DNA of 64,000 nucleotides from Candidatus Aminicenantes bacterium (GTDB taxonomy: Bacteria > Acidobacteriota > Aminicenantia > Aminicenantales > UBA4085): the NCBI GenBank assembly GCA_963715635.1, contig OY970261.1, positions 1,086,438 through 1,150,437 on the forward strand. The letters run 5' to 3'. The translations under genes were made by a program, and so were the position numbers. Numbering within the stretch: the stretch's first letter is position 1; each line of letters begins with the position of its first letter. The notes beneath the pieces were generated by a model, which was not told the origin of the DNA, did no database searches, and was given only the letters and a program-made list of their open reading frames with translations. Below are positions 10,056-29,797 of the stretch, one piece after another.

Positions 10056-10153
10056 GATCGGTTTTTCCTCTGGCTATTGATAGCATAGCTAAAGTGTTTT
10101 TTCCAGACGTTGTATCGGGGCTTGCCGAGAACCCGGCGCCGGCGGGCTTCTAA

Positions 10154-10179: not shown

Positions 10180-10200
10180 GTGACTGGCGTGTGATATGAC

Positions 10201-10539
10201 TTATTTCTTAGGAGGCGCCGCCATCCTCTCCTCGATCTTCTTCTGCAACGCCTGTCGTTGACCAAACGTATCCAGATAGATCTGCAGGTCGATGATTTCC
10301 TGGGCGAGGGCAGTGGCGACCAAATTTATCCTCATCGGTCCCCGCAAATCCAGGAAATTATCCTTGGCCACCCGGTCTCGCGTAAATTCCCATAGCACCT
10401 GATCGATGACCGGCGAGAGAATTCCCCCCCGGTCGGGCGTGGCGACAAGCTTGGTCACGGCCAGCATCATATTGTAGCGCCGGAAGAAGACGGCATTGAT
10501 TTTCCCGGCCTCCCGAGCTTTATTAGCAGCGACCATCAT
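10201..10539 (-). CDS. hypothetical protein (112 aa), last gene of ECF sigma operon
   Basis: ORF with ATGATG start overlapping the previous ORF by 17 nt. No recognisable family. Could be the continuation of a frameshifted single gene with 10523..10786. Confidence 0.4.
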   Translation of the reverse strand: MMVAANKAREAGKINAVFFRRYNMMLAVTKLVATPDRGGILSPVIDQVLWEFTRDRVAKDNFLDLRGPMRINLVATALAQEIIDLQIYLDTFGQRQALQKKIEERMAAPPKK

Positions 10540-10786
10540 TTCTTGGAGGCGCGTTTCGATGACGTTCCAACGTCCCTCGCTGAGCCATGTCGCGGAGGCT
10601 ATCGAGGAAGAGGTCCAGAAGGGCCGTTCCGTCCGCGGGCGAGATCTGCAACGAATCCTTTACTTGTACAACCGCCGTTTCAGAGGACGCGTTCAGCGCT
10701 TGCGCATCCCGGTCGGGCCTCGCCGTTTCCTGGGCGGCCCATCCGCTCATGGCCGACAATAGGATCGCTCCGACGATCAATAATTT
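10523..10786 (-). CDS. small secreted protein (88 aa, signal peptide MTRKLLIVGAILLSAMSGWAAQE)
   Basis: ATG 10786 preceded by GGAGG (reverse complement of 10792-10796), 11 nt after the anti-sigma stop. Cleavable signal peptide. Confidence 0.55.
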   Translation of the reverse strand, partial: KLLIVGAILLSAMSGWAAQETARPDRDAQALNASSETAVVQVKDSLQISPADGTALLDLFLDSLRDMAQRGTLERHRNAPPRNDGRC

Positions 10787-10796
10787 TCTGGTCATG

Positions 10797-11369
10797 TTAA
10801 ACCTCCTTGAATTTATCTTTGAATAATGAGAACGCACGCTCGATTGTTTTATCGCCAAACAGTATTTTCATTTTTTGTTCGAGGCTGTAGCGGGGCTCGA
10901 GTTTGCCCGCAGGGGAGACCACTGTCTCTCCCCCGGTCGTCGCACCGCGGGTCGCGAAGGTGAGGGCCCTGGACATGATGGCGGCAGCCGGAGAAAGACT
11001 TTCATTTTCCGCGGTCTCCCTTTGATAGGAAAGAGGCAATTTCTGGAAACCGGGCAGGTCGTTGAGCGCCGCGTCGATTATTCCCAGCCCCGTTCGCGAA
11101 AACTGCGGCTTGGCTCGGGTGAACCACAGGACCGCTGATATGATCATAATCGCGCCGACGGAAAATCCGAGAACCGGAATCCATGCCCGTCTGACCAGGC
11201 CGGGCGGGATCTTCGTCCCCTCCGGCCGGACCCGGCCGATAACCTGTAGGCGCGCTTCGAAATTCCCGGCGCGGAAATGGCGGAGTCCGTTTTCGGTTTC
11301 ACGTTGAATGATTTGCCGGACCTCTTCAGGCAGGTCATGGAGGTGCTTCCCTGTATCCTTTTCACTCAT
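10797..11369 (-). CDS. anti-sigma factor, single-pass membrane protein (190 aa)
   Basis: Start overlaps the ECF sigma stop by 8 nt. Cytoplasmic N-domain, then one TM helix (VLGFSVGAIMIISAVLWF), then a periplasmic C-domain. Confidence 0.65.
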   Translation of the reverse strand: MSEKDTGKHLHDLPEEVRQIIQRETENGLRHFRAGNFEARLQVIGRVRPEGTKIPPGLVRRAWIPVLGFSVGAIMIISAVLWFTRAKPQFSRTGLGIIDAALNDLPGFQKLPLSYQRETAENESLSPAAAIMSRALTFATRGATTGGETVVSPAGKLEPRYSLEQKMKILFGDKTIERAFSLFKDKFKEV

Positions 11370-13342: not shown

Positions 13343-13416
13343 CCGTAGGCCGCTTGATTTGACAATCGCTTTTTCCGGTGATACAAGCGATAGAAATGAA
13401 TCCTCAAGGAGGTCTT

Positions 13417-15681: not shown

Positions 15682-17082
15682 ATGAATTTAAAATTTTCAA
15701 TTTTGTCAATCGCGGCAACGGCACTAGTTGTATTTGTTTTTTCTTTCCTTCCCGTTTTTGCCCAGGCCGCGGTTCCCCAGGAAACGGTGGCGCAGAAAGA
15801 GGCGCGGATGAAATGGTGGACCGAAGCGCGATTCGGCATGTTCATCCATTGGGGCCTTTACGCCCAGGCCGCGCGGCATGAATGGGTGAAAAATTACGAG
15901 CATATCAAAGACGAGGATTATCAGAAATATTTCGAAGTCTTCAACCCGGACCTCTATGACCCCGGGGCATGGGCGCGTGCAGCCAAGAACGCCGGAATGA
16001 AATATTTTGTCATCACGACCAAGCACCACGAAGGATTCTGTCTCTGGGACTCGAAATACACGGATTACAAGGCGACCAAGACTCCCTACGGCAAAGACCT
16101 GATCAAGCCGCTCGTCAAAGCTATGCGCGACGAGGGGCTGCGGGTCGGCTTTTATTATTCGCTCCTGGACTGGCATCATCCCGAATACACGGTCGATCGC
16201 TATCACCCGATGTTCAATAATCTGGAGTTCCGAGAGAAGGCCAAAAACCGCGATATGAAAAAGTATGTGGAATATCTGCACAACCAGGTGCGTGAGATCT
16301 TGACCGAATTCGGCCAGGTGGACTGCCTGTTCCTGGACTATTCCTTCCCCGGGAAAGATGGAAAGGGAAGGGACGACTGGCAATCCGAGAAGCTCCTGAA
16401 GATGATCCGGGAGCTCCAGCCGAACATCATCATCAATGACCGCTTGGATTTGCTCGATGTGCAAGGCGGCTGGGATTTCCGGACGCCCGAGCAGTTCATG
16501 CCGCGTGAATGGGTCAAGATGAACGGTCTGAGAGTGCCCTGGGAGACCTGCCAAACCTTCTCCGGCTCATGGGGGTATTATCGGGATGAAGCGACCTGGA
16601 AAAGCGTCCGCCAGCTTGTGGTCATGCTGATCGAAACGGTAAGCAAGGGCGGCAACCTGCTGTTGAACGTCGGGCCGACGGCCCGCGGCACGTTCGACTT
16701 TCGGGCGCTGGATCGGCTCAGCGGTATCGGCGAATGGACGAGGCTCAATGGCCGCTCGATCTACGGCTGCACGGAAGCGCCGGAAGGTTTCAGGACGCCG
16801 GCCAACTGCCTCCTGACTTACAATCCTCAGACGAAGCGGATGTATGTCCATGTCCTCGAATGGCCGATGGGAGCACTTTATCTGGATGGATTTGCCGGCA
16901 AGGTCAAGTACGCCCAACTTCTCAATGATGCTTCTGAAATCCGTTTTTCCGAGGTCAGCAAGACCGAAGTTGGATTTATGCCGGGGGACAGGAAAGAAGC
17001 TCCCAGCCAGTCCATCCTTCTCAGGATCCCGGTCCAGCCGCCTCCGGTCACCGTCCCCGTCATTGAACTGTTCCTTAAATAA
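15682..17082 (+). CDS. alpha-L-fucosidase, GH29, secreted, 466 aa
   Basis: KWWTEARFGMFIHWGLYA and HHEGFCLWDS blocks characteristic of GH29. AAAGGAGG RBS before ATG 15682. Confidence 0.85.
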   Translation: MNLKFSILSIAATALVVFVFSFLPVFAQAAVPQETVAQKEARMKWWTEARFGMFIHWGLYAQAARHEWVKNYEHIKDEDYQKYFEVFNPDLYDPGAWARAAKNAGMKYFVITTKHHEGFCLWDSKYTDYKATKTPYGKDLIKPLVKAMRDEGLRVGFYYSLLDWHHPEYTVDRYHPMFNNLEFREKAKNRDMKKYVEYLHNQVREILTEFGQVDCLFLDYSFPGKDGKGRDDWQSEKLLKMIRELQPNIIINDRLDLLDVQGGWDFRTPEQFMPREWVKMNGLRVPWETCQTFSGSWGYYRDEATWKSVRQLVVMLIETVSKGGNLLLNVGPTARGTFDFRALDRLSGIGEWTRLNGRSIYGCTEAPEGFRTPANCLLTYNPQTKRMYVHVLEWPMGALYLDGFAGKVKYAQLLNDASEIRFSEVSKTEVGFMPGDRKEAPSQSILLRIPVQPPPVTVPVIELFLK

Positions 17083-17223: not shown

Positions 17224-20067
17224 ATGAGATTTTTTAAGAAAAACAGTCTGATGTTATTCTGCGTTGCGCTCATTTTTTTGGAGAGCAGCGAATTGCCGGC
17301 CGCCCAATCGGCTTCGGTGAAGCCTGTCGCGTTCGATTTAAAAGCAGGTCAGAATACGCAGCAATTTTTGCTGTTCAATGAACTCGTCCAGTGCACGATC
17401 TCTATTGAATCCAGCCGGCTCATTTCCGATGAGGTCAAAGCTCTTCCGCAATGGCTGTCTGCGTTCAACCCGTCCTCTGAGCTTACCGTTCAAACCGATG
17501 CCGATTTCTTGCTGGATGTGATGTGGACCGGCTGGACGGCGCCCGGCAAAGTGGACAATGCCGATAATCCCGCCGAACTGACTAAGCAGAATTTTCTGCT
17601 GACCGAGCATAAAATCCGCGAGCTGCAGGGTGGGGGCAAAGAGCTCGACCTTTTTTTCAGGGGCGTCCGCCGCATGCCGCTGGAGGTTTGTCTGACCTAC
17701 CGGCTCGAGCCGGATGCGTTTTTTGTTAAAAGAAAATTGGCCGTGCGGGCGGCCGCGCCTTCTCAAGCCGCCGCCTCTCGTCCAAGTGCCCGCGCCTCTC
17801 ACTTTCTTCGCTGGACCTGGCCGCGGCATGGGGTCATCCCAGGAAAGATCGATATCGTCAAGGCTGGCGGGTTCGGCCAGCCCTTCGCCTTTCAGACCGG
17901 CCCGGGCGGCTCATTTTTCGGCCTCGAGTATACGACATCAAATAATACCCTGCGCGCCCTGGACAATGGGAAAAGCGAGCTGGCCTGCGGGCAAGAGATC
18001 GGCCAGCTCATCGGCGATTCCTGGATTGAGAGCGAATGGGTCGTCGAAGCCCTTGCGCCCGAACCCTTTGTCAAAAAATGGTTCTGGAAATATGTGGACC
18101 GCATCCGTGTCGCCCCGCTCAAACCCTATATCCTTTACAACAGTTGGTACGACCTGAGGGCGCCGGAGTATGTGAAAAATCCGGAACGGAGCCTGACCGA
18201 AAAAAACCTCTTGACGACGATCGAATTTTTCCGGACACGGATGTTCGAAAAGCGAGGCTTGAGGCTGGATGCGTTTGTTTTGGATGACGGCTGGGACGTG
18301 TACCGGAGCGACTGGGTGTTGAATAAAGACCAGTTTCCTCGCGGTCTGACCCCTCTCGCCGAGGCGCTGAAGCCGATGGGGACGAGACTCGGCATCTGGT
18401 TCGGGCCGATCGGCGGGTACTCCAACCGGAACCTCCGCCTTGAATACATGAAATCACACGGCTATGAAGTCGTTGGCGATCAACTGTGCCTAGCCGGCAC
18501 AAACTATAAGGCGCTGCTCAAAAAGCGGACGACGGATTTTGTTCGCAACGACGGTGTCGGCTATTACAAGTGGGACGGCATTCAATTCTCGTGCAGCGAG
18601 CCCAACCACGGCCATCCCCAGGACATCTATTCGCGCCGCGCGGTGATGGAATCCTTGATCGAACTGGCCCGGGCCGTTCACGCGGAAAACAAGGATGCTT
18701 TTCTAAACGTCACCTCCGGCACCTGGCTCAGCCCCTGGTGGGTGAAATATGCCAATACCATCTGGATGCAGGGGTCGGACTACGGCTACGCGGATGTCCC
18801 TTCGATCAGCCTTAGGGACGGCGCGATTACCTACCGGGATTCTGTGCTTTATGACGGCCTGATCCACCAGGACTCCTGGTTCCCAATCGCCAACCTGATG
18901 ACTCACGGCCTGATCAAGGGGCACCTCCAAATGCTGGGCGGGAAGGAAGAAACCCTGGACAAATTCACGACTGAGGTGCTGCTCTATTTCGCCCGCGGCA
19001 TCGAGATGTGGGAGCTCTACCTCTCGCCGGACGTGCTGACGGAGGCTGAGTGGGATGCCCTGGCCCAAGGGATCCGCTGGGCCAAGGACCGCTTCGACAT
19101 CTTGAAATGGACTGACATGGTCGGCGGAGACCCGGATAAATTCGAGCCGTACGGCTTTGTCCATTTCGCCGGGACAAAGGGAATTCTGGCTGTTCGGAAT
19201 CCCGGAATGGAACCCAATTCCCTTTCCATCAGATTGGGCGTTTCTTATGGCCTGGCGGGTGATGCGAAAAACTTGGTCCTGGAGCGTGTTTATCCGAATC
19301 GATGGATATCTCCGCTGCTCTACCAGGCAGAGTCAAATGTTGAGCTTTCGCTCGAGGGCTATGAAACGGCCATCTATGAGGTCTATCCCTTGGAGGAGGC
19401 CAAAGAGCCCCTTGTCGCCGGGACGATTTTTGATGCGGCTATGAGTGGAAAAGACCGCTATAGGATTCAATGTTTCGATGCCGGCCAAGGAAGCAAGCTG
19501 TTCAACCCGCAGCTTGTCCGCTCCTTAAGATTCAGGGGAGCTCGGGTCGATCCTGAGCAATTCAAATTGGCCCAGCGGCCTATACTGAAGGCGGTCGCCG
19601 GGACGTCCTTTCAAGGGCAGGCCGGCCAGGGCCGGTATGTTGTTGGGGTGAAATTTATTCTTCAGTCGCCCGCCAAAGAGGGAGCCCTTGCTTTTTTGCT
19701 GCAGCAGTCCGGCGAGCCAACGCCCAACCGGAGGGACCCGGATGTCACGATTTTGTTCGACGGAAAAAAGGCCGAGGTCAAGACCGAAAATCAAAAGGGG
19801 AGCTGGAGTTGGTTCAAGATTAAGGTAAAGCCGGGGGCGCATTCGGCCCGGCTCGAGATCTCTCTTTCAAAGGATATGCAGGATTTTATGGGGAAGACAT
19901 CGGCTTGGCTGGTCGCGCAAGAAAAGCCGCAACCCGAAGAAATCCAGCTAGATTTAAGAAACGAGATCACTTTGTCGCGGGCGATGCCGCCGCTGCCGTT
20001 TCCCGTCGGAGTGATTGTCAAAAATTATAAGATCGGGGAGACGGCCATAGAAATCAATCGGCAATAA
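17224..20067 (+). CDS. large secreted glycoside hydrolase, GH-D clan (GH27/GH36-like alpha-galactosidase) catalytic core with extra N- and C-terminal domains, 947 aa
   Basis: FVLDDGWD motif (DDGW is typical of GH27/GH36 TIM barrels). Signal peptide. AAGGAGG RBS. Confidence 0.5.
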   Translation: MRFFKKNSLMLFCVALIFLESSELPAAQSASVKPVAFDLKAGQNTQQFLLFNELVQCTISIESSRLISDEVKALPQWLSAFNPSSELTVQTDADFLLDVMWTGWTAPGKVDNADNPAELTKQNFLLTEHKIRELQGGGKELDLFFRGVRRMPLEVCLTYRLEPDAFFVKRKLAVRAAAPSQAAASRPSARASHFLRWTWPRHGVIPGKIDIVKAGGFGQPFAFQTGPGGSFFGLEYTTSNNTLRALDNGKSELACGQEIGQLIGDSWIESEWVVEALAPEPFVKKWFWKYVDRIRVAPLKPYILYNSWYDLRAPEYVKNPERSLTEKNLLTTIEFFRTRMFEKRGLRLDAFVLDDGWDVYRSDWVLNKDQFPRGLTPLAEALKPMGTRLGIWFGPIGGYSNRNLRLEYMKSHGYEVVGDQLCLAGTNYKALLKKRTTDFVRNDGVGYYKWDGIQFSCSEPNHGHPQDIYSRRAVMESLIELARAVHAENKDAFLNVTSGTWLSPWWVKYANTIWMQGSDYGYADVPSISLRDGAITYRDSVLYDGLIHQDSWFPIANLMTHGLIKGHLQMLGGKEETLDKFTTEVLLYFARGIEMWELYLSPDVLTEAEWDALAQGIRWAKDRFDILKWTDMVGGDPDKFEPYGFVHFAGTKGILAVRNPGMEPNSLSIRLGVSYGLAGDAKNLVLERVYPNRWISPLLYQAESNVELSLEGYETAIYEVYPLEEAKEPLVAGTIFDAAMSGKDRYRIQCFDAGQGSKLFNPQLVRSLRFRGARVDPEQFKLAQRPILKAVAGTSFQGQAGQGRYVVGVKFILQSPAKEGALAFLLQQSGEPTPNRRDPDVTILFDGKKAEVKTENQKGSWSWFKIKVKPGAHSARLEISLSKDMQDFMGKTSAWLVAQEKPQPEEIQLDLRNEITLSRAMPPLPFPVGVIVKNYKIGETAIEINRQ

Positions 20068-20072
20068 ACATC

Positions 20073-20114
20073 GGGGACACGTACCGAATTCCAGAGAATT
20101 CGGAATATGTCCCC
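20073..20114. terminator. bidirectional terminator hairpin between convergent genes (GGGGACA..CCGAATTC-cagag-GAATTCGG..TGTCCCC)
   Basis: Only 54 nt separate the stops at 20067 (+) and 20122 (-). Hairpin followed by TTTT on the plus strand and U-rich on the minus strand. Confidence 0.55.
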
Positions 20115-20121
20115 ATTTTCT

Positions 20122-21606
20122 TTACAGTTCTTTGACGTAGATGTTTCGGAAATATGGCGGAGAGATGCTGTCGTGGTTCTGGAGCCCGATGTAGCCCTCG
20201 AGGGCATAATCCTTGACCTTTCCGCCCGGCTTGGCATCCCAATCGAGGATCAATTTCCCGTTCAATTCGACCTTGAGGTGTTGGCCTTTGAACTCAATCT
20301 TGAAATGGTTCCATTCGCCGGTCGGCAGGGAGGCAGTCATCGTCGGCGCTTCGACATCATAGGCCGCCCCGGTCACATGGATTCCCTCGCCCGCGTCATA
20401 GATCTGGATCTCGAAGGAATGATAGATGTAGTCGTCGCTGGTCGGGACTTCGGGAACCCGGATAAAGATCCCCGAGTTCGTCTCCTCCGTCGAGCACTTG
20501 AAGTCGCACTCGAGAATGAAATCTTTATACTTCTTGCCGTACCAGAGCAGGCCCATGCCGCCCTGGCCTTTGAGCACGCCCGCCTTCGGATCGACCTCGA
20601 AGTAGCCCGGGCCGTAATGGTTCCAGCCGTGTTTTTCGTAGCGGCCGCCGGCCTTTCGAAAAATCTGCTCGTAGCCTTCGTAATAGGTGATGCTCTTGAC
20701 ATAGTCGATGCTTTTTTTAATGGCGGGGCTGGGGTTGGCGGCCTCTTTCTCGGCCTCGTATTCCATCGTCAGATATCCGTCATAGTCCTGCAGGGTCAGC
20801 TCGGCCAGGATGTCGTGCATGTTCGCTTTGCCGCTGCCCCAGGGGACGTCATCGGTAGCCGGCGGCGGGCCGTAGCCAGTGCGATCTTTCAGGTGGGTAT
20901 CGATGATCCGGCCTTCGAGGAGTCTCAACGCTTCGAGCGGGTTGTTCATGCCCCGCATCCAGTGCCCGGTGTCGGCGCATGAGCCGATGCACTCATCACG
21001 GCCCTTGACGTGGTCGTACACGGTCTCGGGCTTGGCATATTTGTTGGGCTCAGGATGGTTATGGATGGCGATCTGAATATTATATTCCTTGACCATCTTC
21101 TCAAGGAGCGTGAAGTCGTCGTCCGCGGGCTCGGTCACGATCGTCCGGAAGCCCATCTTTCGCGCGAAACTAAAGACTTTTCGCATGCTCTCCTCGGTTG
21201 TGCCGATGTCGCAGACGCCGTAGGCTACGATAGAAACGCCTGCTTCCTTGAGCTTGGCTTTGATTTTAGCTAGCTGCTCGTCCGTCAGGTTGTCGTCAAA
21301 CTTGACGTTCGGGAATTCCGCTCCCAGGGCCTGCCCCGGATACGCCTGGGCATATTCCACGCCGAGCTCTTTGAGTTTTGCCAGCGTCTCCAAGAAACTG
21401 AATCTCCGGTAGGACCAGCACTGCACGGCGATGGGAAATTTCTTGATCCGGACATCCTTATAATTTGTGCTCTCGACTTGTTTTTGGATCTCGGGCGAAA
21501 AATGGCGGATCTGCGGCGCCGCCGCCTGCTGGCCAGGCGCTATTTGAATTGCAAGAAATATTAGAAAAGGAACGGCCACAAATAGAATTAAAGATTTCCC
21601 TCTCAT
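20122..21606 (-). CDS. secreted fusion protein: sugar-phosphate isomerase/epimerase (xylose-isomerase-like TIM barrel) + C-terminal DUF1080 (3-keto-disaccharide-hydrolase fold), 494 aa
   Basis: N-terminal signal peptide. TIM-barrel blocks (IVAYGVCDIG, IAIHNHPE, DTGHWMRG). C-terminal GIFIRVPE...FEIQIYD...GYIGLQNHDS...FRNIYVKEL is classic DUF1080. Confidence 0.75.
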   Translation of the reverse strand: MRGKSLILFVAVPFLIFLAIQIAPGQQAAAPQIRHFSPEIQKQVESTNYKDVRIKKFPIAVQCWSYRRFSFLETLAKLKELGVEYAQAYPGQALGAEFPNVKFDDNLTDEQLAKIKAKLKEAGVSIVAYGVCDIGTTEESMRKVFSFARKMGFRTIVTEPADDDFTLLEKMVKEYNIQIAIHNHPEPNKYAKPETVYDHVKGRDECIGSCADTGHWMRGMNNPLEALRLLEGRIIDTHLKDRTGYGPPPATDDVPWGSGKANMHDILAELTLQDYDGYLTMEYEAEKEAANPSPAIKKSIDYVKSITYYEGYEQIFRKAGGRYEKHGWNHYGPGYFEVDPKAGVLKGQGGMGLLWYGKKYKDFILECDFKCSTEETNSGIFIRVPEVPTSDDYIYHSFEIQIYDAGEGIHVTGAAYDVEAPTMTASLPTGEWNHFKIEFKGQHLKVELNGKLILDWDAKPGGKVKDYALEGYIGLQNHDSISPPYFRNIYVKEL

Positions 21607-21818
21607 CGAATCCTCCTCTCATCACGCTAAATAGTCGTCATTGAAAGCAACGATGCAGAGTGGGTGGCGCCGATCGGGGTGCCCCACGCCCGGAACGAAA
21701 ATATTTGCAGATAAGGTCCGATTTTTGAGATCCACGCCCATAGTCCCAAATATTTTCGTGAGGAGGTGGGGCTGGTCGGCGACAGGACCCACCCTGCATA
21801 TTGCTATCACCGACAACC

Positions 21819-23069
21819 TTATTTCCCCTTTGGGTTCCACGTCCCTTTGGCCACGGCCGGCACGAACATGTCGAGACCCGGCGGTGGGAAGGGGATGGTG
21901 GTTTCCTTTTCCGCGCTCATGTAGGCCGTCATTAACAGCTCGGTGACATTGACGCCGTCGCTGAAATTCTCTTCCGGCCGCTTGCCCGCCAGGAACGACT
22001 GGACCATGTGGCGGTTTTCGGCGATGTAGCCGTACTCGGTCTCTTCGTTGGCCACCACCGGCATGAGCCCGATCTCGGCATTCTGTTTTTCGACCAGGTC
22101 TTCGCCCTCCTTGCCTATGACGTTTCGGCTGAAGAAGACTTTGAGCCCGGAATCCAGCGTGTTGATCTGCAACGAGTATTCCGGCCCCAGCAACTCCATG
22201 GTCAGCCGCAGGCCGGCTCCGATATAGCACCAGGACGTCGTCGTTTCGACGATGACCTTTTTTCCCTTTTTATCTTTATACTCCACGAGAGACCGGGCAA
22301 AATCCTCAGCCGGCCTCTTGAGATAGTCTGTCTTGCCGCCGCTGTTCTTAGCCAGGATCGCCGCATAGTGCGGCTCCTGCCATTTCAGGCAATTCATGTA
22401 GGCCGTGACGCTGACGGGCTTAAGGACATTGCGCGGCGCGCCGGGCGGCGTCAGCATGAACCGGGCCTCTTCGACCGAGTGGCACATCATATCGTTGAGC
22501 ACGCCGCCGCCCTGGAGCGTGCCCTCCCAGAACCAGGGCATGTGAGGCCCGCTGTGTTCCTCGGCGGCCCGGGCGAGATAGGGGGGACCGGATATGGCGG
22601 CGCCGCGTGCCCAGACGATTTCTTTTCCCCTGACGACGGCGGGCGCAAAGACCTGGTTTTCCAGGTAGCCGTCGAGGAGCTTGGCCTTCCTGGCCAGCTC
22701 GAGCATGCGCCGCGCTTCCTTGACATTTCGTCCCAGCGGTTTTTCGCAGGTGACGCCGACGAGCTCGCCCTTGCCCTTAAGGACCGCCTGGGCGATTTCC
22801 TCCATGACCTCGACGCGGGTGTAGTTGGGCGCACCGATCCAGAGCGCGTCAATGGCCGGGTCGGCGATCATATCCGTTATCGACTTATAGGGCTTTGCTT
22901 TGCCGACCTTGAGTTTCCGCGCCAGGGCGACGGCTTCACCCGCGCGTTTTTCGTCCGGGTCGAAAATGCCCAGGATGTCCGCGTCCCGGATGCCCACCCA
23001 GGATCGGATGTGAAAGCGAGCGATGAAACCGCCTCCGATAATCCCAATGCCTAAATATTTCTTTTTCAT
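21819..23069 (-). CDS. Gfo/Idh/MocA family NAD(P)-dependent oxidoreductase (candidate glycoside 3-dehydrogenase), 416 aa
   Basis: GIGIIGGGFIARFH Rossmann motif and EKP motif (VTCEKPLGRN). Real start MKKKYLG at 23069; the 687-aa ORF in the track is a spurious 5' extension. Confidence 0.8.
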   Translation of the reverse strand: MKKKYLGIGIIGGGFIARFHIRSWVGIRDADILGIFDPDEKRAGEAVALARKLKVGKAKPYKSITDMIADPAIDALWIGAPNYTRVEVMEEIAQAVLKGKGELVGVTCEKPLGRNVKEARRMLELARKAKLLDGYLENQVFAPAVVRGKEIVWARGAAISGPPYLARAAEEHSGPHMPWFWEGTLQGGGVLNDMMCHSVEEARFMLTPPGAPRNVLKPVSVTAYMNCLKWQEPHYAAILAKNSGGKTDYLKRPAEDFARSLVEYKDKKGKKVIVETTTSWCYIGAGLRLTMELLGPEYSLQINTLDSGLKVFFSRNVIGKEGEDLVEKQNAEIGLMPVVANEETEYGYIAENRHMVQSFLAGKRPEENFSDGVNVTELLMTAYMSAEKETTIPFPPPGLDMFVPAVAKGTWNPKGK

Positions 23070-23089
23070 AGTTAACCCCTTTTTTGTTA

Positions 23090-24310
23090 TTAAGCCTGCG
23101 CCGGCGTTTCGGCCGGGCCTTTCTTTTCCTTGAACAGCGCCACGAAGGCGACGGCACAGACAAGCGTCAGGACCGTCGGCACCCAGAAGACATTTCTCCA
23201 GTTCGTCACCTTTTCGACAGTGAAAAGACCCTGGATCCATCCCGAAAAATTGCTCCCGATGAAACTGCCGAGTCCCAGGATGATGACGGCAATCAAGCTT
23301 TGGGCCGAGGCGCGGATGTCCTTGGGCGCGATCATATCCACGTAGATATAGGCGGCCGTGAAGAAGAACACGTAGCAGAAGCCGTGGAGAGACAGCGAAG
23401 CGACGACCAGCCAGGCGGGCGTCCCGATGACGAAGATGATATAGCGGAGCGGCCAGGCCAGGACGCCAAGAACCATCGTTTTTTTGATGCCGTATTTGGG
23501 GAGGAAGTAGGGGAGGAGAAGGGCCATGACGAAGATTTCGGCAACCTGGGCGATGGTCATGACGCCTGAAAGCCAGGATTCGGTCACGCCGACTTTGGGC
23601 GAAGTGAGGAAAGGCGCCGTCAGGACATAATAGAATTGAAGCTCCGTGGCGACAATAAAAGCGATGATGGTGAAGACCAGGAAGTTCTTGTCCTTGAGCA
23701 TCTTGATGGCCTCCAGGAAAGCCCAGGGTTTGGCGCCTTCTTTTTTCGGCGGCGTATGCGGAAGCCCAAAGGCCAGGAACCCCATGATGACTGAGAAAAT
23801 GCCGGCCAGAAACAGCGTGTCTCCGTTGACGGCAATGGCCGAGACCGATTTGGCGGCCAGGCGCCATCCCACGAGCCCCCAACCCGCCGCAATCCAGCCG
23901 ATCGTTCCCCAGACCCGGATCTTGCCGAAATCCTTTTCCGAGTTTTGAAGATTAATGAAAGCGATGGAGTTCGTCAGGGCCAGCGTCGGCGCATAGATGA
24001 GGCAGTAAATGAACATCACCCAAATAATGGCCGAGTAGGATGCGACGGCCGAGCCCAGAACCAACAGGATGCCGCCGGCGATCTGCATGAAGGCGATCAC
24101 TTTTTGGGTGGGGAAGTAACGGTCGGCCAGCTGGCCGCCGATAAAAGGCGCGATGATCGTGGCGATCGGCAGCAAGCTGTAGATGAAACCGGCCTGGGGG
24201 CCGCTGAACCCCAGCGTATTGATCAAATAGGCCGAGAGCACCGGGAACCAGGAGCCCCAGATCGCGTACTCCAAGAACATCATGATGCCAAGGCGGAATT
24301 TTGCGTTCAT
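23090..24310 (-). CDS. MFS transporter, nucleoside:H+ symporter (NupG/XapB-like) family, 406 aa
   Basis: MNAKFRLGIMMFLEYAIWGSWFPVLSAYL resembles the NupG N-terminus. ATG 24310 preceded by GGAGG. 20 nt downstream of it sits the Gfo gene start. Confidence 0.65.
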   Translation of the reverse strand: MNAKFRLGIMMFLEYAIWGSWFPVLSAYLINTLGFSGPQAGFIYSLLPIATIIAPFIGGQLADRYFPTQKVIAFMQIAGGILLVLGSAVASYSAIIWVMFIYCLIYAPTLALTNSIAFINLQNSEKDFGKIRVWGTIGWIAAGWGLVGWRLAAKSVSAIAVNGDTLFLAGIFSVIMGFLAFGLPHTPPKKEGAKPWAFLEAIKMLKDKNFLVFTIIAFIVATELQFYYVLTAPFLTSPKVGVTESWLSGVMTIAQVAEIFVMALLLPYFLPKYGIKKTMVLGVLAWPLRYIIFVIGTPAWLVVASLSLHGFCYVFFFTAAYIYVDMIAPKDIRASAQSLIAVIILGLGSFIGSNFSGWIQGLFTVEKVTNWRNVFWVPTVLTLVCAVAFVALFKEKKGPAETPAQA

Positions 24311-24528
24311 ACCCTCCTTCCTTTTCATGAAGAATTCATTGGGGATGATAGGGCGAAGCCAAAAATATATAAATTTCGACGCTTTGTCAAATGGGCTCGG
24401 GGCAAGCGCTTCATTAAAGGAGAAGGGGGTCCTGTCGCCGACCAGCCCCATCATCCTCGCTGAAAAATTTGGGTATATATCCAGGACTGCTGAATTGACA
24501 GAATGTATCCCAAATTTTCGTCAGCTGC

Positions 24529-24569
24529 GGTGGCTGGGGCGCCCGGTCGGCGCCACCCCACTTTTTTTT
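24529..24569 (+). terminator. plus-strand intrinsic-terminator-like GC hairpin (GGTGGC..GGCGCC..GGCGCC..ACC) followed by T8, inside a divergent intergenic region
   Basis: Read directly: GC-rich self-complementary segment 24529-24559, then tttttttt at 24562-24569. No plus-strand gene ends upstream (the upstream gene is on the minus strand). Confidence 0.45.
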
Positions 24570-24683
24570 AATCGCGCATTGCCCCTCGCCCGACAAAAAA
24601 AAGAAAAAATGAATATTACACGCTCTAGTTTGACTTCGGATGGGAAAAATATTATGGTAGAGTCACGGCAGGCAATCACGGCT

Positions 24684-27600
24684 ATGAAATGCCCTCAGTG
24701 CCAGTTTGAAAACCCCGGAGACACCCGTTTCTGCGGCAGCTGCGGGGCACCCCTTCGTCCTTCCCAGGAGAGCGTCTCGGCCCGCACAGAAACCATGCAA
24801 ACTCCAAGAAAAGAACTCGCGTCGGGCAGCCTGTTTGCTGGCCGCTACCAGGTCATTGAAGAGCTGGGAAAAGGCGGCATGGGCAAAGTCTACAAAGTAT
24901 TGGACAAAGATCTGGATGTGAAAGTCGCCCTCAAACTCCTGAAGCCCGAGATCGCCTCCGATGAAGAGACGATTGCCCGCTTCCGGAACGAGCTCAAAGT
25001 CGCCCGCACCGTCACCCACAAAAATGTCTGCCGGATGTACGATTTCGGGAGGGCCGAGGGCACGTACTTTATCACGATGGAGTATGTCCCCGGCGAGGAC
25101 CTCAAGAGCACGATAACTAGAGTCGGGCAGTTGAGTGTAGGGAAGACGATCGCCGTTATCAAGCAGGTCTGTGAGGGATTGGCCGAAGCCCACCGGCTGG
25201 GTGTTGTCCATCGGGACCTCAAGCCCCAGAACATCATGCTCGATCGAGAGGGAAACGCCCACATCATGGACTTCGGGATCGCCCGGACCTTTCGGACGAA
25301 AGGCCTCACGGGCGGCAACGTGATGATCGGCACGCCCGAATACATGTCCCCGGAACAGGTCGAAGGGAAGGACATCGACACGCGCTCGGATATCTATTCT
25401 CTCGGCATCATTCTTTTCGAAATGCTGACAGGAAGAATTCCTTTTGAGGGTGAATCTGTTTTAAGCGTTGCCCTCAAACAGGAAACCCAGCCGCCCCCTG
25501 ATCCGAGAGCAATTAACAGCCAGATTCCGGAAGACTTCAGCCGCCTGATTCTCAAGTGCCTGGAAAAAGAAAGAGCCAAGAGATTCCAGAGTGCTGAAGA
25601 AGTATTGGCTGAGCTGGCCAAGATTGAAAAAGGCGTCCCCACGACAGAGCGGGTGATTCCCCGACCCACGCGCCTCGCCTCGAGGGAAATCACGGTCAAA
25701 TTTACCCTGAAAAAGCTATTTGTTCCCGCCCTCATTGTCATAGCGGTTGTTGCGGCAGGGCTGTTCGCCCTCTTCTTGATCCCCAAAAAAGAGCCGGCTA
25801 GACATTCCATTGCCGTCATCAGCTTTAAAAATCAAACGGGCGACAAGGCCTTCGACTATCTCCAGGAAGCCATTCCCAACCTTCTGATCACGAGCCTCGA
25901 GCAGTCCAAATATCTGCGGGTGACGACATGGGAAAGGATGAAGGACATCCTCAGGCAGTTGGGCAAAGACGCCGGAGGCCTTATCGATGAGGATCTTGGG
26001 TTCGAGCTCTGCCGAAAGGAGGGCATCGAGGCGATCGTTATCGGAAGCTTCGTCAAGGCCGGAGAGATGTTCGCCACGGACACCAAAGTCCTGGAAGTGG
26101 AGACGAAAAAGCTCGTCAGAAGCGCCGGCGCCAGGGGCGAAGGCGTCGGAAGCATTCTTAAAAGCCAGATCGACGATCTGAGCCGAAATATCTCGCGGGG
26201 CATCGGATTATCGGAGCGCAAGATTGCCGCGGCAGCCCCGGCCAGGATCATCGATCTCACCACCAATTCGATGGAAGCCTATAACTATTTTTTGAGGGGC
26301 CGGGACGATTATGAAAAGTTTTTTTATCTTGACGCCCAAAAATTTTTGAAGAAGGCCGTCGAGCTTGACCCGACCTTTGCCGTGGCTTGCCTCTACCTGG
26401 CCAGGGCCAGCGCAAATTTGGTTGATTTCAAGGCCCGGGATGAAGCTCACGAGATCGCCAAAAAATATTCTCAGAAAGCCACTGAGAAAGAGAGGCTTTA
26501 CATCGAGGCCTCTTACGCCAACATTATTGAAAGGAACCCGGAGAAGAGATTCCGCATCCTCTCCGAATTGGTCAAAAAATTTCCTGAAGAAAAATATGCC
26601 CATTCCGAGCTGGGTGACTATTATGAAGACCAGGGGCAATATCGGGAAGCCATCGAAGAGCTCGACAGAGCTATTGCGCTTGACCCGAATTTCGGCTTTG
26701 CCATCAATCAAGCCGCCTATGACTATGCGCGGACGGGCAATATTGAAAAGGCCGTCGAATACTTCGAGCGTTATGCGTCCGTCAATCCTGGACTCCCCAA
26801 TCCCATAGACTCCATTGCCGAGTTGAACCTGCGCATAGGAAAACTTGATGAGGCCATCGCGAAATACAAGGAAGCCTTGGCCATTAAGCCCGATTTTTAT
26901 CGCTCTTGCGAGGGGCTCGCTTATATTTTTGCCCTGAAGGAAGATTACGCGGAGACGATGAGCTGGGTTGAGCAATTTGTCGAGGGGGCGCCGACTCCAT
27001 CGGCGAAATGGGAAGGAATTTGGCTGAAAGCTTACTTTGACTATTTCCTCGGCCGTTGGGATCGATCTCTGGCAGAATACCTTGCCTTGAAAAAGCAGGC
27101 TGAAAAGGCGGAATTTTCGTATGGGGTCGCAACGATAGACTGGATCACAGGATATATTTATTCGGATCTCGGGCAATTCGACCTAGCCCGAAGATCCTTC
27201 AAAGGATGGATCGATTATAATTTCAAGCAGAATCCGTCCACCAGGACTTCTGATGCGGCGCGAGACGGTTTCCAGTGCGCATGGGTAGACCTTAGACAAG
27301 GGCGAATAGAGGCCGCGAAAGCTAAGCTTAAGGAAATTGAATCCCTCCTGCCTGCAGTGGATTCAGCCAATAAAAAGGATATGACATTTCTTTATGAGCT
27401 ACTCGGTACGGAGGTTTGGCTGGCGGAGGGTTCCATCGATAAAGCCATCGCCCTTGCCGAAAAAATCGTTCCTTTGGACCCGCCGCTGATGCAAACGGCA
27501 AGCCTGGCCTTCACCAACCAGCCCTTCCTCAAAGACGTTTTGGCGCGTGCTTACTGGAAAAAAGGCGAGTTGGACAAAGCCATCTCGGAATACAAACGGC

Positions 27601-27797
27601 TAATGACCATTGATCCTAAAAACCAGCTCCGTTTCCTCATCCATCCGCTGTATCATTACAGGCTGGGCCGGATCTATGAAGAAAAAGGCGAGAAGGCCCA
27701 AGCCCGGGAGCAGTATCAAAAATTCCTTGAGCTTTGGAAAGACACCGACCCCGGCCATCCCGAGATCGCGGACGCAAAGAAGCGCCTGGCGGGATAA
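24684..27797 (+). CDS. Ser/Thr protein kinase (Hanks-type) with N-terminal zinc-ribbon, one TM helix and C-terminal TPR-repeat sensor domain, ~1038 aa
   Basis: CPQCQFENPGDTRFCGSCG zinc ribbon, GKGGMGKVYK glycine loop, HRDLKPQNIML catalytic loop, DFGIAR, TM (LFVPALIVIAVVAAGLFALFLI), then TPR-like repeats. Start ambiguous (24609/24654/24684) because the frame is open back to 24282. Confidence 0.8.
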   Translation: MKCPQCQFENPGDTRFCGSCGAPLRPSQESVSARTETMQTPRKELASGSLFAGRYQVIEELGKGGMGKVYKVLDKDLDVKVALKLLKPEIASDEETIARFRNELKVARTVTHKNVCRMYDFGRAEGTYFITMEYVPGEDLKSTITRVGQLSVGKTIAVIKQVCEGLAEAHRLGVVHRDLKPQNIMLDREGNAHIMDFGIARTFRTKGLTGGNVMIGTPEYMSPEQVEGKDIDTRSDIYSLGIILFEMLTGRIPFEGESVLSVALKQETQPPPDPRAINSQIPEDFSRLILKCLEKERAKRFQSAEEVLAELAKIEKGVPTTERVIPRPTRLASREITVKFTLKKLFVPALIVIAVVAAGLFALFLIPKKEPARHSIAVISFKNQTGDKAFDYLQEAIPNLLITSLEQSKYLRVTTWERMKDILRQLGKDAGGLIDEDLGFELCRKEGIEAIVIGSFVKAGEMFATDTKVLEVETKKLVRSAGARGEGVGSILKSQIDDLSRNISRGIGLSERKIAAAAPARIIDLTTNSMEAYNYFLRGRDDYEKFFYLDAQKFLKKAVELDPTFAVACLYLARASANLVDFKARDEAHEIAKKYSQKATEKERLYIEASYANIIERNPEKRFRILSELVKKFPEEKYAHSELGDYYEDQGQYREAIEELDRAIALDPNFGFAINQAAYDYARTGNIEKAVEYFERYASVNPGLPNPIDSIAELNLRIGKLDEAIAKYKEALAIKPDFYRSCEGLAYIFALKEDYAETMSWVEQFVEGAPTPSAKWEGIWLKAYFDYFLGRWDRSLAEYLALKKQAEKAEFSYGVATIDWITGYIYSDLGQFDLARRSFKGWIDYNFKQNPSTRTSDAARDGFQCAWVDLRQGRIEAAKAKLKEIESLLPAVDSANKKDMTFLYELLGTEVWLAEGSIDKAIALAEKIVPLDPPLMQTASLAFTNQPFLKDVLARAYWKKGELDKAISEYKRLMTIDPKNQLRFLIHPLYHYRLGRIYEEKGEKAQAREQYQKFLELWKDTDPGHPEIADAKKRLAG

Positions 27798-27800: not shown

Positions 27801-27866
27801 CGGGGTCAAACCTACTCATTACGCACAATTGGCCAGGGGAATATGCGTAACGAGTAGGTTTGACCC
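27801..27866. repeat. REP-like palindromic element, copy 3 (opposite orientation to copies 1 and 2)
   Basis: Begins 4 nt after the kinase stop (27795-27797). Arms identical to copy 1. The loop ACAATTGGCCAGGGGAATAT gives the same GGGGA(A/G) loop motif on the mRNA strand as copies 1 and 2. Confidence 0.8.
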
Positions 27867-27934
27867 CACTAATCTCGCCAAAGGTCAGCGGTTATGGTAT
27901 TTTAAAGAGCGATTATTCGCCGCGAGGATATCCC

Positions 27935-29797
27935 ATGCATATTAAGAACAGTCTGAACGTAAAATCGGCCGTCGGCTATTTTTTACTCAGCGTTTTTGTG
28001 TTCTTTATCCTCTCGATTGCCGCGGACGGGGCGGAAACAAAAAATTTTTATTATCCCGAAGTCCGAATCGAGGTCCAGATTGCCGCGGATGGAACATTCA
28101 CCGTCGATGAATACCGGACTTATGAATTCCAGGGCCGCTTTTCCTGGGCGACGCTCTGGATCGCGCAACGCGTCGAGCGGCAGGGCTACGCCTATGATAT
28201 TTCCATAGAAGATTTTTCTGTCACCGACGAACACAACTTGCCGCTCCGGATAGAGCAAAGCATAAAACGCGAACGCTTCGAAGCCAAGTGGTATTATTCG
28301 GCCCGCAACGAGCGCCGCACCTTCCACATCCATTATCGGGTCCGCGGCGGGATCATCAGCTATCCGGAAGTCTCCGAGCTTTACTGGCAGGTGATCGGAG
28401 AAGGGTGGGACAAGCCTACTCATAACGCGGTGATCACCGTCCGCCTTCCAGGATCCGTGGCGAATAAGAGCGATATTCTTGTCTACGGACATGGGCCTCT
28501 TTCGGGCTATGCAGAGATCGTGGATAGCCAGACAGCCCGTTTTTCGGCCACTTATATCCGGTCCGGCCAATTCCTGGAAATCCGAATGGTTTGGCCGGCC
28601 GAGCTCGTTACCGGCGTCCCCTCGAATCGCCACACAGTGGACTCGATCCGCCGCGAAGAAGCGCAGTTCGTCCAGGATACGATCGCCAAGGCCAAGCGCG
28701 ACCAGGAACGAGAAGCGCGCAACGCGAAGAACCTGCAGCGCGGGTTCTATGCCTGGCTGGCCTTGTTCATCCTGGTGCCTCTCATCTGGCTGCTCTTTTA
28801 TTTGCATTTCTGGAAAAAGGTCGGCAAGGATTATCGTTTTATTGATATTCCTTCCTATGCCCATGAGCCGGCCTCCAAGCTCCAGCCGGCCCTTGTCGAA
28901 GTTCTTTTAAAAGAAGGGGCGGGGATCACGCCGAAGTCGTTCACGGCCACGATTTTCGATTTGGCCAGGCGCGGCTATATCGAGATCGAAGACCGGCTTG
29001 TGGAAAAGCGGGGCCTCTTCGGGAGCAAAGACGACTACGAAACGACGCTGACTTTGCGCAAAGAATTTCAGAGCGAAACGACCCTGCTCGGCTACGAGCG
29101 GGATCTTTTGGAATGGCTGTTCAGTAAGCCGTCCGACGATGCGCCGCAGGCCGGCGCGCGGCAGACGCTCGACAATATCAAAAAATACCTCAAACGCAAT
29201 CCCCAGACGTTTCAAAAATGGTATCTGGAATGGGCCAAGGACATCAAACTCGAGGGGAAAAAGCTCAATTTCATCGAGCCGGCGAGCTTGCGCATGCGCA
29301 ATATCTTTCTCGTTGTCACTTGGCCTCTGGCCGTTTTAACCCTCAATCCCGCCCTGGTCGCTCTCGCGATTCTCCTCATTCCGTTCATGAAGCGGCGGGC
29401 TCAACATTGGGCGCACGAGAATGAGCAATGGAAAGCCCTGCGGCGGTTCCTGGACGACTTCTCTGATTTTAAAGAACTCCCGCCCGAAGCGTATAAATTG
29501 TGGGAGCGATATTTGGTCTTTGGGATTATTTTTGGAAACGCCAAAAAAATCATCAAGACGCTTCCCTTGATTCTCAAGGACGAGCGGGCGGCGGCCCCGG
29601 TCTGGTACTCAGGCTACATCCAATCAAGCTTTATCAGCTCGGGAAGGCTCACCAGCATGATCAGCAGCATCGACCACATCTCGAGCTCCATCCAGCAGGC
29701 CAGCACTTCGGCGGCCCATTATTCCTCCGGCGGCGGAGGAGGATTCAGCGGAGGAGGCGGCGGGGGAGGCGGGGGCGGCGGCGGAAGCGCCGGCTAA
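27935..29797 (+). CDS. DUF2207 family membrane protein with C-terminal Gly-rich tail, 620 aa
   Basis: Signal/TM N-terminus, large extracytoplasmic domain, central TM helices (FYAWLALFILVPLIWLLFYL; VTWPLAVLTLNPALVALAILLIPF) and terminal SSGGGGGFSGGGGGGGGGGGGSAG, which is typical of DUF2207. Confidence 0.7.
   Translation: MHIKNSLNVKSAVGYFLLSVFVFFILSIAADGAETKNFYYPEVRIEVQIAADGTFTVDEYRTYEFQGRFSWATLWIAQRVERQGYAYDISIEDFSVTDEHNLPLRIEQSIKRERFEAKWYYSARNERRTFHIHYRVRGGIISYPEVSELYWQVIGEGWDKPTHNAVITVRLPGSVANKSDILVYGHGPLSGYAEIVDSQTARFSATYIRSGQFLEIRMVWPAELVTGVPSNRHTVDSIRREEAQFVQDTIAKAKRDQEREARNAKNLQRGFYAWLALFILVPLIWLLFYLHFWKKVGKDYRFIDIPSYAHEPASKLQPALVEVLLKEGAGITPKSFTATIFDLARRGYIEIEDRLVEKRGLFGSKDDYETTLTLRKEFQSETTLLGYERDLLEWLFSKPSDDAPQAGARQTLDNIKKYLKRNPQTFQKWYLEWAKDIKLEGKKLNFIEPASLRMRNIFLVVTWPLAVLTLNPALVALAILLIPFMKRRAQHWAHENEQWKALRRFLDDFSDFKELPPEAYKLWERYLVFGIIFGNAKKIIKTLPLILKDERAAAPVWYSGYIQSSFISSGRLTSMISSIDHISSSIQQASTSAAHYSSGGGGGFSGGGGGGGGGGGGSAG

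Follow-up and report, generated by a model that had tools for sequence, protein, structure and literature searches.

A three-gene locus of Aminicenantia encoding an exported TIM-barrel::DUF1080 fusion protein with a putative role in 3-keto-glycoside cleavage

Organization of the locus

The DNA stretch analysed here (64 kb, hereafter the window) comes from an uncultured sediment bacterium of the Aminicenantia. On its minus strand, at positions 20122-24310, lie three consecutive genes that code, in 5' to 3' order, for a transporter of the major facilitator superfamily (MFS), a Gfo/Idh/MocA oxidoreductase, and a protein in which a xylose-isomerase-like TIM barrel is fused to a DUF1080 domain. An initial annotation of the sequence had connected this trio with the oxidative cleavage of glycosides via 3-keto intermediates. 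The listing of open reading frames (ORFs) and Pfam scans reproduced the gene order and all domain calls of that annotation: PF01408, PF01261, and PF06439 were all matched, and the second domain of the oxidoreductase is PF22725. The three genes most likely form one operon, which comprises the following elements.

24362..24390, minus strand: candidate sigma-70-like promoter upstream of the MFS gene (TTGACA, 17-nt spacer, TATTTT; consensus scan)
23090..24310, minus strand: YegT/NupG-family MFS H+ symporter, 406 aa, first gene of the operon (PF03825 over its full length)
21819..23081, minus strand: cytoplasmic Gfo/Idh/MocA NAD(P) oxidoreductase, 420 aa (PF01408, 7.5e-19; PF22725)
21607..21818, minus strand: spacer of 212 nt between the oxidoreductase and fusion genes (read from the sequence)
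20122..21606, minus strand: TIM-barrel::DUF1080 fusion, 494 aa (PF01261 and PF06439; AlphaFold model)
20073..20114, no strand assigned: hairpin, likely terminator for both transcription units, within the 54-nt convergent gap 20068-20121

The candidate promoter matches 10 of 12 consensus positions and is a pattern match only. A gap of 8 nt separates the stop codon of the MFS gene from the oxidoreductase gene, and a GGAGG ribosome-binding site lies 6 nt ahead of the ATG of the fusion. The spacer between the oxidoreductase and the fusion is longer here (212 nt) than in relatives (approximately 10-120 nt). It contains no convincing terminator, and an Rfam scan of the locus including this spacer yielded no matches at E<=1; an internal promoter or regulatory element could be located inside it. 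The terminator that had been postulated for the convergent gap was recovered by direct folding, whereas a generic terminator scan missed it. The hairpin has 17 pairs (free energy -25.2 kcal/mol, z = -6.6), none of 200 shuffled sequences folded into an equally stable structure, and on the plus strand it is followed by the U-run UUUUCUUU.

Conservation of the trio in Aminicenantia

Gene order was compared across 13 loci from metagenome-assembled genomes (MAGs) of Aminicenantia and one metagenome locus, in which the fusion is 64-81% identical. A signal-less oxidoreductase is encoded directly upstream of the fusion in all 14 loci and, with 74-95% identity, represents the most conserved gene of the trio. 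A NupG-family MFS gene adjoins the trio in 13 of the 13 informative loci, in two alternative positions. The upstream orthologue, where present, is 64-85% identical. In loci L005-L009 and L011 (at about 9460-10850; for example, L006:9514-10848) it is missing, and a 444-aa NupG-family paralogue (33% identical) is encoded directly downstream of the fusion. This downstream arrangement is found in about half of the Aminicenantia loci. The operon has acquired members of the NupG family at two separate places.

That 14 independent loci retain this gene order despite the divergence of the fusion given above is more than chance would produce. The flanks of the trio vary and include a DUF2207 gene, a Ser/Thr kinase, an AMP-binding enzyme, PilZ, and Rnf genes. 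A GH29 gene, the DUF2207 gene, the kinase, and the AMP-binding enzyme were considered as further members and excluded because they are not consistently present; the functional unit is the trio. A search of the window and of the flanking regions of the 14 related loci for a second Gfo/Idh/MocA gene, or for one that codes for an oxidoreductase exported via the twin-arginine (Tat) pathway, was negative. In one MAG (L010:5371-9394) all three genes of the trio are split over reading frames and represent either pseudogenes or long-read indel errors.

A large family of TIM-barrel::DUF1080 fusions

The fusion protein comprises the following parts, for which AtOGE, the 3-keto-O-glycoside beta-eliminase encoded by the GlycDH/AtOGE/AtHYD/Gfo Oxo operon of Agrobacterium tumefaciens (Bitter et al., 2023, PMC10628242), served as a reference.

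21526..21606, minus strand: predicted Sec-type signal peptide, approximately residues 1-27 (basic n-region, hydrophobic helix)
20692..21435, minus strand: xylose-isomerase-like TIM barrel of the 3P6L-like clade, residues 58-305 (PDB, profile, and Foldseek matches)
21055..21063, minus strand: codons of H182-N183-H184, predicted metal ligand and catalytic base (alignment to AtOGE H132-N133-H134)
20131..20631, minus strand: DUF1080 (PF06439) beta-sandwich, residues 326-492 (Pfam, profile, and Foldseek)

Both domains are complete with respect to their Pfam profiles. PF01261 matches residues 76-305 (6e-19, profile positions 2-248 of 249), and PF06439, the DUF1080 or "3keto-disac_hyd" family, matches residues 326-492 (1.4e-35, 123.5 bits at a cut-off of 26.8, profile positions 12-187 of 187). 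The AlphaFold model (predicted local distance difference test, pLDDT, 88.8; predicted template modelling score, pTM, 0.83) consists of a detached N-terminal helix, the TIM barrel, and the beta-sandwich. The helix, at residues 4-21, has a low pLDDT and coincides with the putative signal peptide, in which MRGK is followed by a hydrophobic run of 19 residues and by APG/QQ. The N-termini of orthologues are equivalent, with AxA-type sites and variable sequence, and conservation starts only after about residue 30. Neither a Cys lipobox nor a twin arginine occurs in the N-terminus of the fusion. The protein looks like one exported via Sec, in agreement with the signal peptide initially assigned to it.

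In a search that covered 5.8 billion proteins, the fusion had more than 1,600 matches at E<=1e-10. The best 120 clusters from that search all contain both domains at a length of approximately 490 aa, and the named ones belong to Candidatus Aminicenantes or Acidobacteria. A library clustered at 50% identity added several far more distant full-length fusions (29-38% identical), along with proteins of reversed domain order, tandem TIM barrels, and TIM-HEAT, DUF1080-ThuA, and DUF1080-PQQ-dehydrogenase fusions. When the search was seeded with one of the distant fusions, at least 120 further clusters with the same architecture were obtained. In this second clade, which is 30-38% identical, the named members are Planctomycetota/Sedimentisphaerales and carry the labels "family 16 glycoside hydrolase" or "DUF1080 domain-containing protein". 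The TIM::DUF1080 fusion thus appears to be a large family that occurs in at least two phyla. With at least 120 clusters on the Aminicenantia side and a second clade in the Planctomycetota, the architecture cannot be called unusual, as had been assumed. It is intact and common in relatives, which also disposes of the possibility that it might be a one-off with a disrupted domain boundary. To judge from titles, abstracts, and selected passages, publications that mention DUF1080 do not appear to describe this fusion.

The TIM-barrel domain has active-site residues like those of a 3-keto-glycoside eliminase

The structures closest to the TIM domain are 3p6l, 4kw2, and 3lmz, periplasmic proteins of Parabacteroides distasonis from structural genomics. 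The nearest is 3p6l (6.6e-50 by sequence and 3.4e-90 by profile, Foldseek template modelling score 0.90, 37% identity). The HNHP, D-x-GH-x-R, H-x-KD, and EYE motifs are common to these structures and the fusion, but the P. distasonis proteins are stand-alone. In this organism the 3P6L-like TIM gene BDI_1873 (4kw2) and the DUF1080 gene BDI_1869 (3u1x) are only four locus tags apart. Counterparts of the fused domains may also be neighbours as separate genes in Bacteroidota.

Profile matches to characterised enzymes are much weaker: 6.2e-9 for AtOGE (8bvk), 9e-5 for AtHYD (8ro4), and approximately 1e-3 to 1e-5 for AL1/BT1 (7e-4 to 1.7e-5 for 8tcd, 8tcs, and 8tct), which belong to the BT2156-BT2159/AL1-AL4 alternative glycosidase pathway of Bacteroides and Alistipes (Liu et al., 2021, PMC8121099; Nasseri et al., bioRxiv 10.1101/2024.03.25.586180). 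Although the PF01261 fold and the predicted export would agree with the BT2156/AL1 type, such values hardly favour an assignment to it, and the domain falls into the 3P6L-like clade. For a comparison of active sites the sequence of AtOGE was taken from the supplement of PMC10628242, whose numbering reproduces every residue that the paper names. In a hidden Markov model alignment, H182-N183-H184 of the fusion correspond to H132-N133-H134 of AtOGE, D212 to D163, R218 to R169, H238 to H189, K240 to K191, and D241 to D192. E282 would be equivalent to E233 by spacing only (30/26/44 in the fusion and 31/26/44 in AtOGE). The metal site of AtOGE, a short TIM barrel, is formed by His132, Asp163, His189, and Glu233, its catalytic residue is His134, and the variants H134A and H189A are inactive (PMC10628242). 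The AtOGE-like residues are invariant across 14 fusions that share as little as 29% identity. Where the motif is readable, the 3P6L-like clade and AtOGE have H-x-H whereas AtHYD and PuCGE have E-x-H; the unrelated MJ1311 has no His at the position of the H-x-H motif.

The TIM domain thus seems to possess an AtOGE-type metal and catalytic site. Because the overall similarity to AtOGE is low, this would support a domain that works like AtOGE and not orthology of the two proteins. No other single finding speaks as strongly as this residue match for the view that the TIM domain may carry out eliminase-type chemistry on a 3-keto sugar.

The DUF1080 domain

The DUF1080 domain is a clear homologue of BT2157 (8tda/3osd, profile match approximately 1.6e-25) and AL2 (8v31, 6.5e-25) and also matches the "3-keto-glycoside eliminase/hydratase" 8rr2/9fbe at approximately 1e-25. 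Foldseek aligned it with the BT2157/AL2 group at E values of approximately 1e-11 to 3e-12, 25-26% identity, and a probability of 1.00. Uncharacterised DUF1080 structures of P. distasonis are nearer to it than BT2157 and AL2. Residues N377, S378, R383, E399, Q401, D417, W432, N433, Q476, and H478 of the domain are invariant. BT2157 and AL2 function as 3-keto-alpha-glycoside lyase and ketoglucal hydratase (bioRxiv 10.1101/2024.03.25.586180).

The oxidoreductase and the transporter

The oxidoreductase contains the EKP Lys motif and a D-x-x-x-H motif. Its Rossmann motif GGGF begins at residue 11, and there is no twin arginine. Although a longer in-frame ORF extends upstream into the MFS gene, the position of the Rossmann motif leaves no room for a signal peptide, in agreement with the initial annotation, which saw no obvious Tat or Sec signal. 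The best relatives in the PDB are 6nor and 6jw6, followed by 4gqa, 3ezy, DgpA (7xr9), and levoglucosan dehydrogenase (6a3f). The first two presumably are the aminoglycoside 3''-dehydrogenases GenD2 and KanD2, and like these, DgpA and levoglucosan dehydrogenase presumably act at C3 of glycosides. Inositol dehydrogenases and glucose-fructose oxidoreductase (GFOR) rank below 6nor, 6jw6, DgpA, and levoglucosan dehydrogenase. A grouping with these enzymes of central metabolism, which the initial annotation had named as the finding that would speak against its reading, was not observed: the protein scores 60.6 bits on the iolG model TIGR04380, for which the cut-off is 355, and GFOR matches reach only 26-30 bits. 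When the oxidoreductase was modelled with AlphaFold on the basis of 30 close homologues, the pLDDT reached only 50.3.

The MFS protein matches PF03825 over its full length (1e-109, 367.6 bits). Its nearest structures are Escherichia coli YegT (8zoj, 1.5e-69, 238 bits) and then NupG (7e-55, 190 bits), and the start at 24310 (MNAKFRLG...) agrees with the N-termini of both. Its initial designation as NupG-like is therefore appropriate. It is homologous over its full length to the nucleoside:H+ symporters YegT, NupG, and XapB of E. coli, but with 314.9 bits it remains below the cut-off of 446 of the nucleoside-permease model TIGR00889, and its genomic partners are sugar-redox enzymes instead of nucleoside enzymes. 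A reading of the transporter alone as part of nucleoside salvage was rejected on account of this score and of a topology that does not fit.

Relatives of the fusion in Planctomycetota

At all six informative loci with a Planctomycetota-type fusion (L016, L017, L018, L024, L025, and L026), one to four Gfo/Idh/MocA genes are adjacent, and 10 of the 11 such genes examined encode twin-arginine signals. The gene directly upstream of the fusion in one of them (L024:5597-6943) matches the BT2158 "glycoside 3-dehydrogenase" model with 606 bits (E 4e-182) near full length. In the Planctomycetota, the combination of a Tat-exported dehydrogenase with the fusion resembles the published pathway condensed into two genes. 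Three of the loci combine two to four Tat-signal Gfo/Idh/MocA genes with the fusion, a multihaem cytochrome, and a cytochrome b (L024, L025, and L026), and they also contain giant ORFs of 941-1356 aa with ThuA, HEAT, and DUF1080 domains (L024:37-15458, L025:5451-9865, L026:1-8425). These clusters look like a respiratory-linked system for 3-keto sugar oxidation. It has been suggested that cytochromes may re-oxidise the periplasmic dehydrogenase, and the multihaem cytochromes and cytochrome b of the Planctomycetota clusters fit this suggestion.

Comparison with characterised pathways

The trio has several features in common with the BT2156-59/AL1-4 system. Both contain an exported xylose-isomerase-like TIM barrel, an exported DUF1080 domain that is clearly homologous (profile approximately 1e-25), and a signal-less Gfo/Idh/MocA protein. 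A BT2158-like Tat-exported dehydrogenase beside the fusion (606 bits) is a further likeness that is confined to the Planctomycetota relatives. In contrast to the Bacteroides and Alistipes system, the two exported activities reside on one polypeptide in the window, the TIM barrel is of another clade (E approximately 1e-3 to 1e-5 to AL1/BT1), and the fixed extra gene codes for a NupG-type MFS protein instead of a SusR-type regulator. Moreover, a Tat-exported dehydrogenase is missing at this locus, and its oxidoreductase does not appear to be a member of the BT2158 or the BT2159 family. A periplasmic glycoside 3-dehydrogenase of the BT2158 family with tightly bound NAD, as is typical of the BT2156-59 system, was found neither in the window nor at the 14 related loci.

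The A. tumefaciens operon follows the same four-step logic, with a cytoplasmic Gfo-type enzyme as the final keto-sugar reductase, and its AtOGE shares with the TIM domain the H-N-H, D, R, and H-x-K-D residues and a similarly short barrel (approximately 260 residues). However, AtOGE and the TIM domain share only about 24% identity in an alignment of 97 residues, the role of hydratase falls to a second TIM barrel (AtHYD) instead of a DUF1080 domain, the oxidant is a GMC flavoenzyme, and Gfo Oxo is only about 22% identical to the oxidoreductase of the window. Signal-less oxidoreductases are also part of the known clusters, namely AL4/BT2159 (bioRxiv 10.1101/2024.03.25.586180) and Gfo Oxo, which reduces 3-ketoglucose (PMC10628242).

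A putative pathway and the evidence against it

Taken together, the trio might represent a lineage-specific version of non-Koshland glycoside cleavage by oxidation, elimination, hydration, and reduction, a full scheme whose chances of being right or wrong seem about evenly balanced. Its chemistry, substrate, MFS cargo, direction of the oxidoreductase reaction, and source of 3-keto-glycosides, as we infer them, would be as follows. The periplasmic fusion would act on sugars that already bear a 3-keto group. Its metal-dependent TIM domain, with the AtOGE-like H-N-H/D/H/E site, would remove the aglycone from 3-keto-beta-glycosides by 1,2-elimination. [quoted passage not shown] The YegT/NupG-type MFS protein would import the small keto-sugar (or ketoglycal) product: an exported Sec-type fusion and a cytoplasmic NAD enzyme cannot share a substrate pool, and therefore the transporter would have to connect them. 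In the cytoplasm, the NAD(P)-dependent oxidoreductase would convert the imported compound, most simply by reduction to an ordinary sugar, in parallel to BT2159/AL4 and Gfo Oxo. The initial oxidation at C3 would be the task of an enzyme whose gene lies elsewhere in the genome, such as a dehydrogenase that resembles BT2158 and is exported via Tat.

Several observations weigh against this scheme. No periplasmic dehydrogenase that makes 3-keto-glycosides is encoded in the locus, the window, or the flanks of the 14 related loci. The oxidoreductase matches structures in the PDB with at most 77 bits, reaches 22.8 bits on the BT2158 family model NF058561 (cut-off 750), does not match the BT2159 family model NF058563 at E<=0.01, and shares no more than 26% identity, confined to the Rossmann part, with the Planctomycetota Tat-exported oxidoreductases or with Gfo Oxo of A. 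tumefaciens. Such Rossmann-level similarity does not permit a transfer of function. Furthermore, the TIM domain is remote from every characterised lyase or hydratase, and its closest structures (3p6l, 4kw2, and 3lmz) carry no known function. The exported DUF1080 component of the BT2156-59/AL1-4 system seems to be present at the domain level only, DUF1080 overlaps CBM66, and the DUF1080 protein THTE_1561 has been cited as an endo-xanthanase/lichenase. The transporter belongs to a family known for nucleosides and not for keto-sugars. The redox balance poses an additional problem. In the published model, the periplasmic dehydrogenase with its bound NADH is re-oxidised by the 3-keto-sugar product. 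If this product is drained into the cytoplasm, the periplasmic enzyme is left reduced unless another acceptor exists.

Because the oxidoreductase is cytoplasmic, scores so low on the BT2158 model, and is so distant from the Tat-exported enzymes, it cannot feed the exported fusion. The window thus holds the downstream half of the pathway together with an importer and a cytoplasmic redox step, and not a complete pathway. Of the original proposal, the part concerning the fusion appears to hold, with the AtOGE-like residues, the homology of the DUF1080 domain to BT2157/AL2, the context in Planctomycetota, and the conservation of the architecture in its favour, whereas the local oxidoreductase has to be dismissed as a supplier of 3-keto-glycosides. 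It is also conceivable, but quite doubtful, that the Aminicenantia trio is a self-sufficient, compartment-split system of glycoside cleavage that needs no periplasmic dehydrogenase. In that case, the fusion would act on glycosides in which a keto or enone sugar is already present, or the MFS protein and the oxidoreductase would shuttle a keto-sugar through the membrane as a diffusible hydride carrier and thereby link the redox chemistry of periplasmic sugars to cytoplasmic NAD(H). If such a keto-sugar shuttle existed, a strict fermenter could run the 3-keto route without cytochromes.

Alternative explanations

The trio may be read differently if the DUF1080 domain is a GH16-like glycanase or carbohydrate-binding module, the TIM domain a periplasmic isomerase or epimerase, and the MFS protein and oxidoreductase take up and oxidise the released sugar, for example as a sugar 1-dehydrogenase. 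Conventional glycan degradation of this kind would agree with the name "family 16 glycoside hydrolase" that NCBI gives to relatives of the fusion, with the activities cited for THTE_1561 and the overlap with CBM66, and with the convergent genes for a secreted GH29 enzyme and an alpha-galactosidase-like protein, the former of which is found near the trio in 5 of 13 loci. However, Pfam assigns PF06439 and not GH16 to the C-terminal domain, and the GH16 catalytic motif E-x-D-x(x)-E is absent from residues 310-494, where the sequence reads ECDFK and FEIQIYD. The TIM site matches that of a 3-keto-glycoside eliminase and not that of a phosphosugar isomerase, and the Planctomycetota relatives are located within dehydrogenase/ThuA/cytochrome clusters instead of glycoside-hydrolase clusters. 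BT2157 itself was shown not to be a hydrolase (Nasseri et al., bioRxiv 10.1101/2024.03.25.586180). Conventional degradation is thus an unlikely explanation. A catabolic trio for cyclitols such as inositol, with the MFS protein resembling IolT, the oxidoreductase IolG, and the TIM domain an IolE-like dehydratase, would be in line with the best NCBIfam matches (iolG at 1.2e-16 for the oxidoreductase and iolE at 9.6e-9 for the TIM domain) and with the presence of IolE and IolI structures among the remote TIM matches. Yet both matches fall well short of what the family models require (60.6 bits at a cut-off of 355 for TIGR04380 and 35.2 at 290 for TIGR04379), IolE is cytoplasmic whereas the TIM domain is exported and fused to DUF1080, and no other iol genes are present. 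This reading was rejected because of the scores and the mismatch in topology, and its probability is very slight.

The genes could also constitute two parallel modules that share a class of substrates and are co-regulated for this reason. The MFS protein would then import an intact small, possibly nucleoside-like glycoside, which would be oxidised at C3 in the cytoplasm in the manner of KanD2, GenD2, or DgpA and cleaved there, spontaneously if the leaving group is good or by an unlinked enzyme, while the fusion would serve a periplasmic pool that a Tat-exported dehydrogenase, likewise unlinked, supplies. YegT and NupG, to which the transporter is most closely related, have N-glycosides as known substrates, and the best solved relatives of the oxidoreductase presumably act on intact glycosides. 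Spontaneous elimination of 3-keto-aryl-glycosides has been measured (Bitter et al., PMC10628242). On the other hand, no cytoplasmic lyase or hydratase is encoded nearby, and since oxidoreductase and fusion are strictly adjacent in all 14 loci, their metabolic connection is more likely to be a direct one. Two parallel modules are an unlikely explanation.

Neighbouring genes and genomic context

Two genes on the plus strand converge with the trio.

15682..17082, plus strand: secreted GH29 alpha-L-fucosidase (PF01120, 4.8e-92), loosely linked context
17224..20067, plus strand: secreted 947-aa protein with a short alpha-galactosidase-like (GH27/36) segment (PF02065, 26.9 bits)

The fucosidase had been correctly recognised. 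Five of 13 related genome loci have its orthologue no more than about 5 kb from the trio, but not at a constant position. In contrast, the classification of its neighbour as a GH-D-like alpha-galactosidase relied on a short and weak match just below the cut-off of 27 bits, and alpha-galactosidases in the PDB align at 6e-7 and weaker with residues of about 337-429 only (spans of approximately 55-90).

On the other side of the trio, a plus-strand ORF (24282-27797) for a Ser/Thr kinase with a zinc ribbon and tetratricopeptide repeats overlaps the start of the MFS gene as listed. As homologues align only from residue 109, the true start of the kinase probably lies near 24606, which would leave a divergent promoter region of approximately 295 nt. 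It is followed by a gene (27860-29797, plus strand) for a DUF2207 membrane protein that ends in a run of about 20 glycines (GGGGGFSGGGGGGGGGGGGSAG) and whose orthologue often flanks the trio in related genomes. Further away, a 380-aa GHL10-like putative glycosyl hydrolase (47364-48506, plus strand) begins with a twin-arginine signal (MKRREFLLGLGAG / MKRREFLLGLGAGALAAKG), and hence the organism appears to use Tat export. At 36037-47196 and 13378-15582 the window is rich in genes for secreted proteins, namely S9/PD40 beta-propeller peptidases, a gamma-glutamyltranspeptidase, an HtrA-like protease, and a GH3-PA14 enzyme. The secreted peptidases and the GH3-PA14 enzyme suggest a mixed proteolytic and saccharolytic lifestyle.

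Implications

The oxidative, non-Koshland route of glycan cleavage was worked out only between 2021 and 2024 (Liu et al., 2021, PMC8121099; Bitter et al., 2023, PMC10628242; Nasseri et al., 2024, bioRxiv 10.1101/2024.03.25.586180). Its chemistry and component families are already known, and variants of the sort described here have been predicted by specialists, whom they would not surprise. What appears to be new is that the TIM::DUF1080 fusions are recognised as a large family based on the uncharacterised 3P6L-like clade, that their active site is AtOGE-like, and the arrangement in Aminicenantia, where a cytoplasmic oxidoreductase and a YegT/NupG-type transporter take the place of a Tat-exported dehydrogenase. 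A search for literature that combines NupG, Gfo/Idh/MocA, and sugar phosphate isomerase retrieved none.

To judge from the domain composition of the fusions, the lyase and hydratase steps of this route may often be carried out by one secreted polypeptide that is built from the 3P6L-like TIM clade. Anaerobic sediment lineages (Aminicenantia and Planctomycetota/Sedimentisphaerales), which are missed when carbon turnover is predicted from glycoside hydrolases in the manner of CAZy, harbour the fusion in abundance. The pairing with a cytoplasmic oxidoreductase in Aminicenantia raises the concrete question of how the redox cycle is closed. The fusion family is thus useful for annotation and poses a clean biochemical question. 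If the proposed role is confirmed, it would provide a function for the 3P6L, 4KW2, and 3LMZ proteins and for thousands of others that databases currently list as "family 16 glycoside hydrolase", as "DUF1080", or as "sugar phosphate isomerase".

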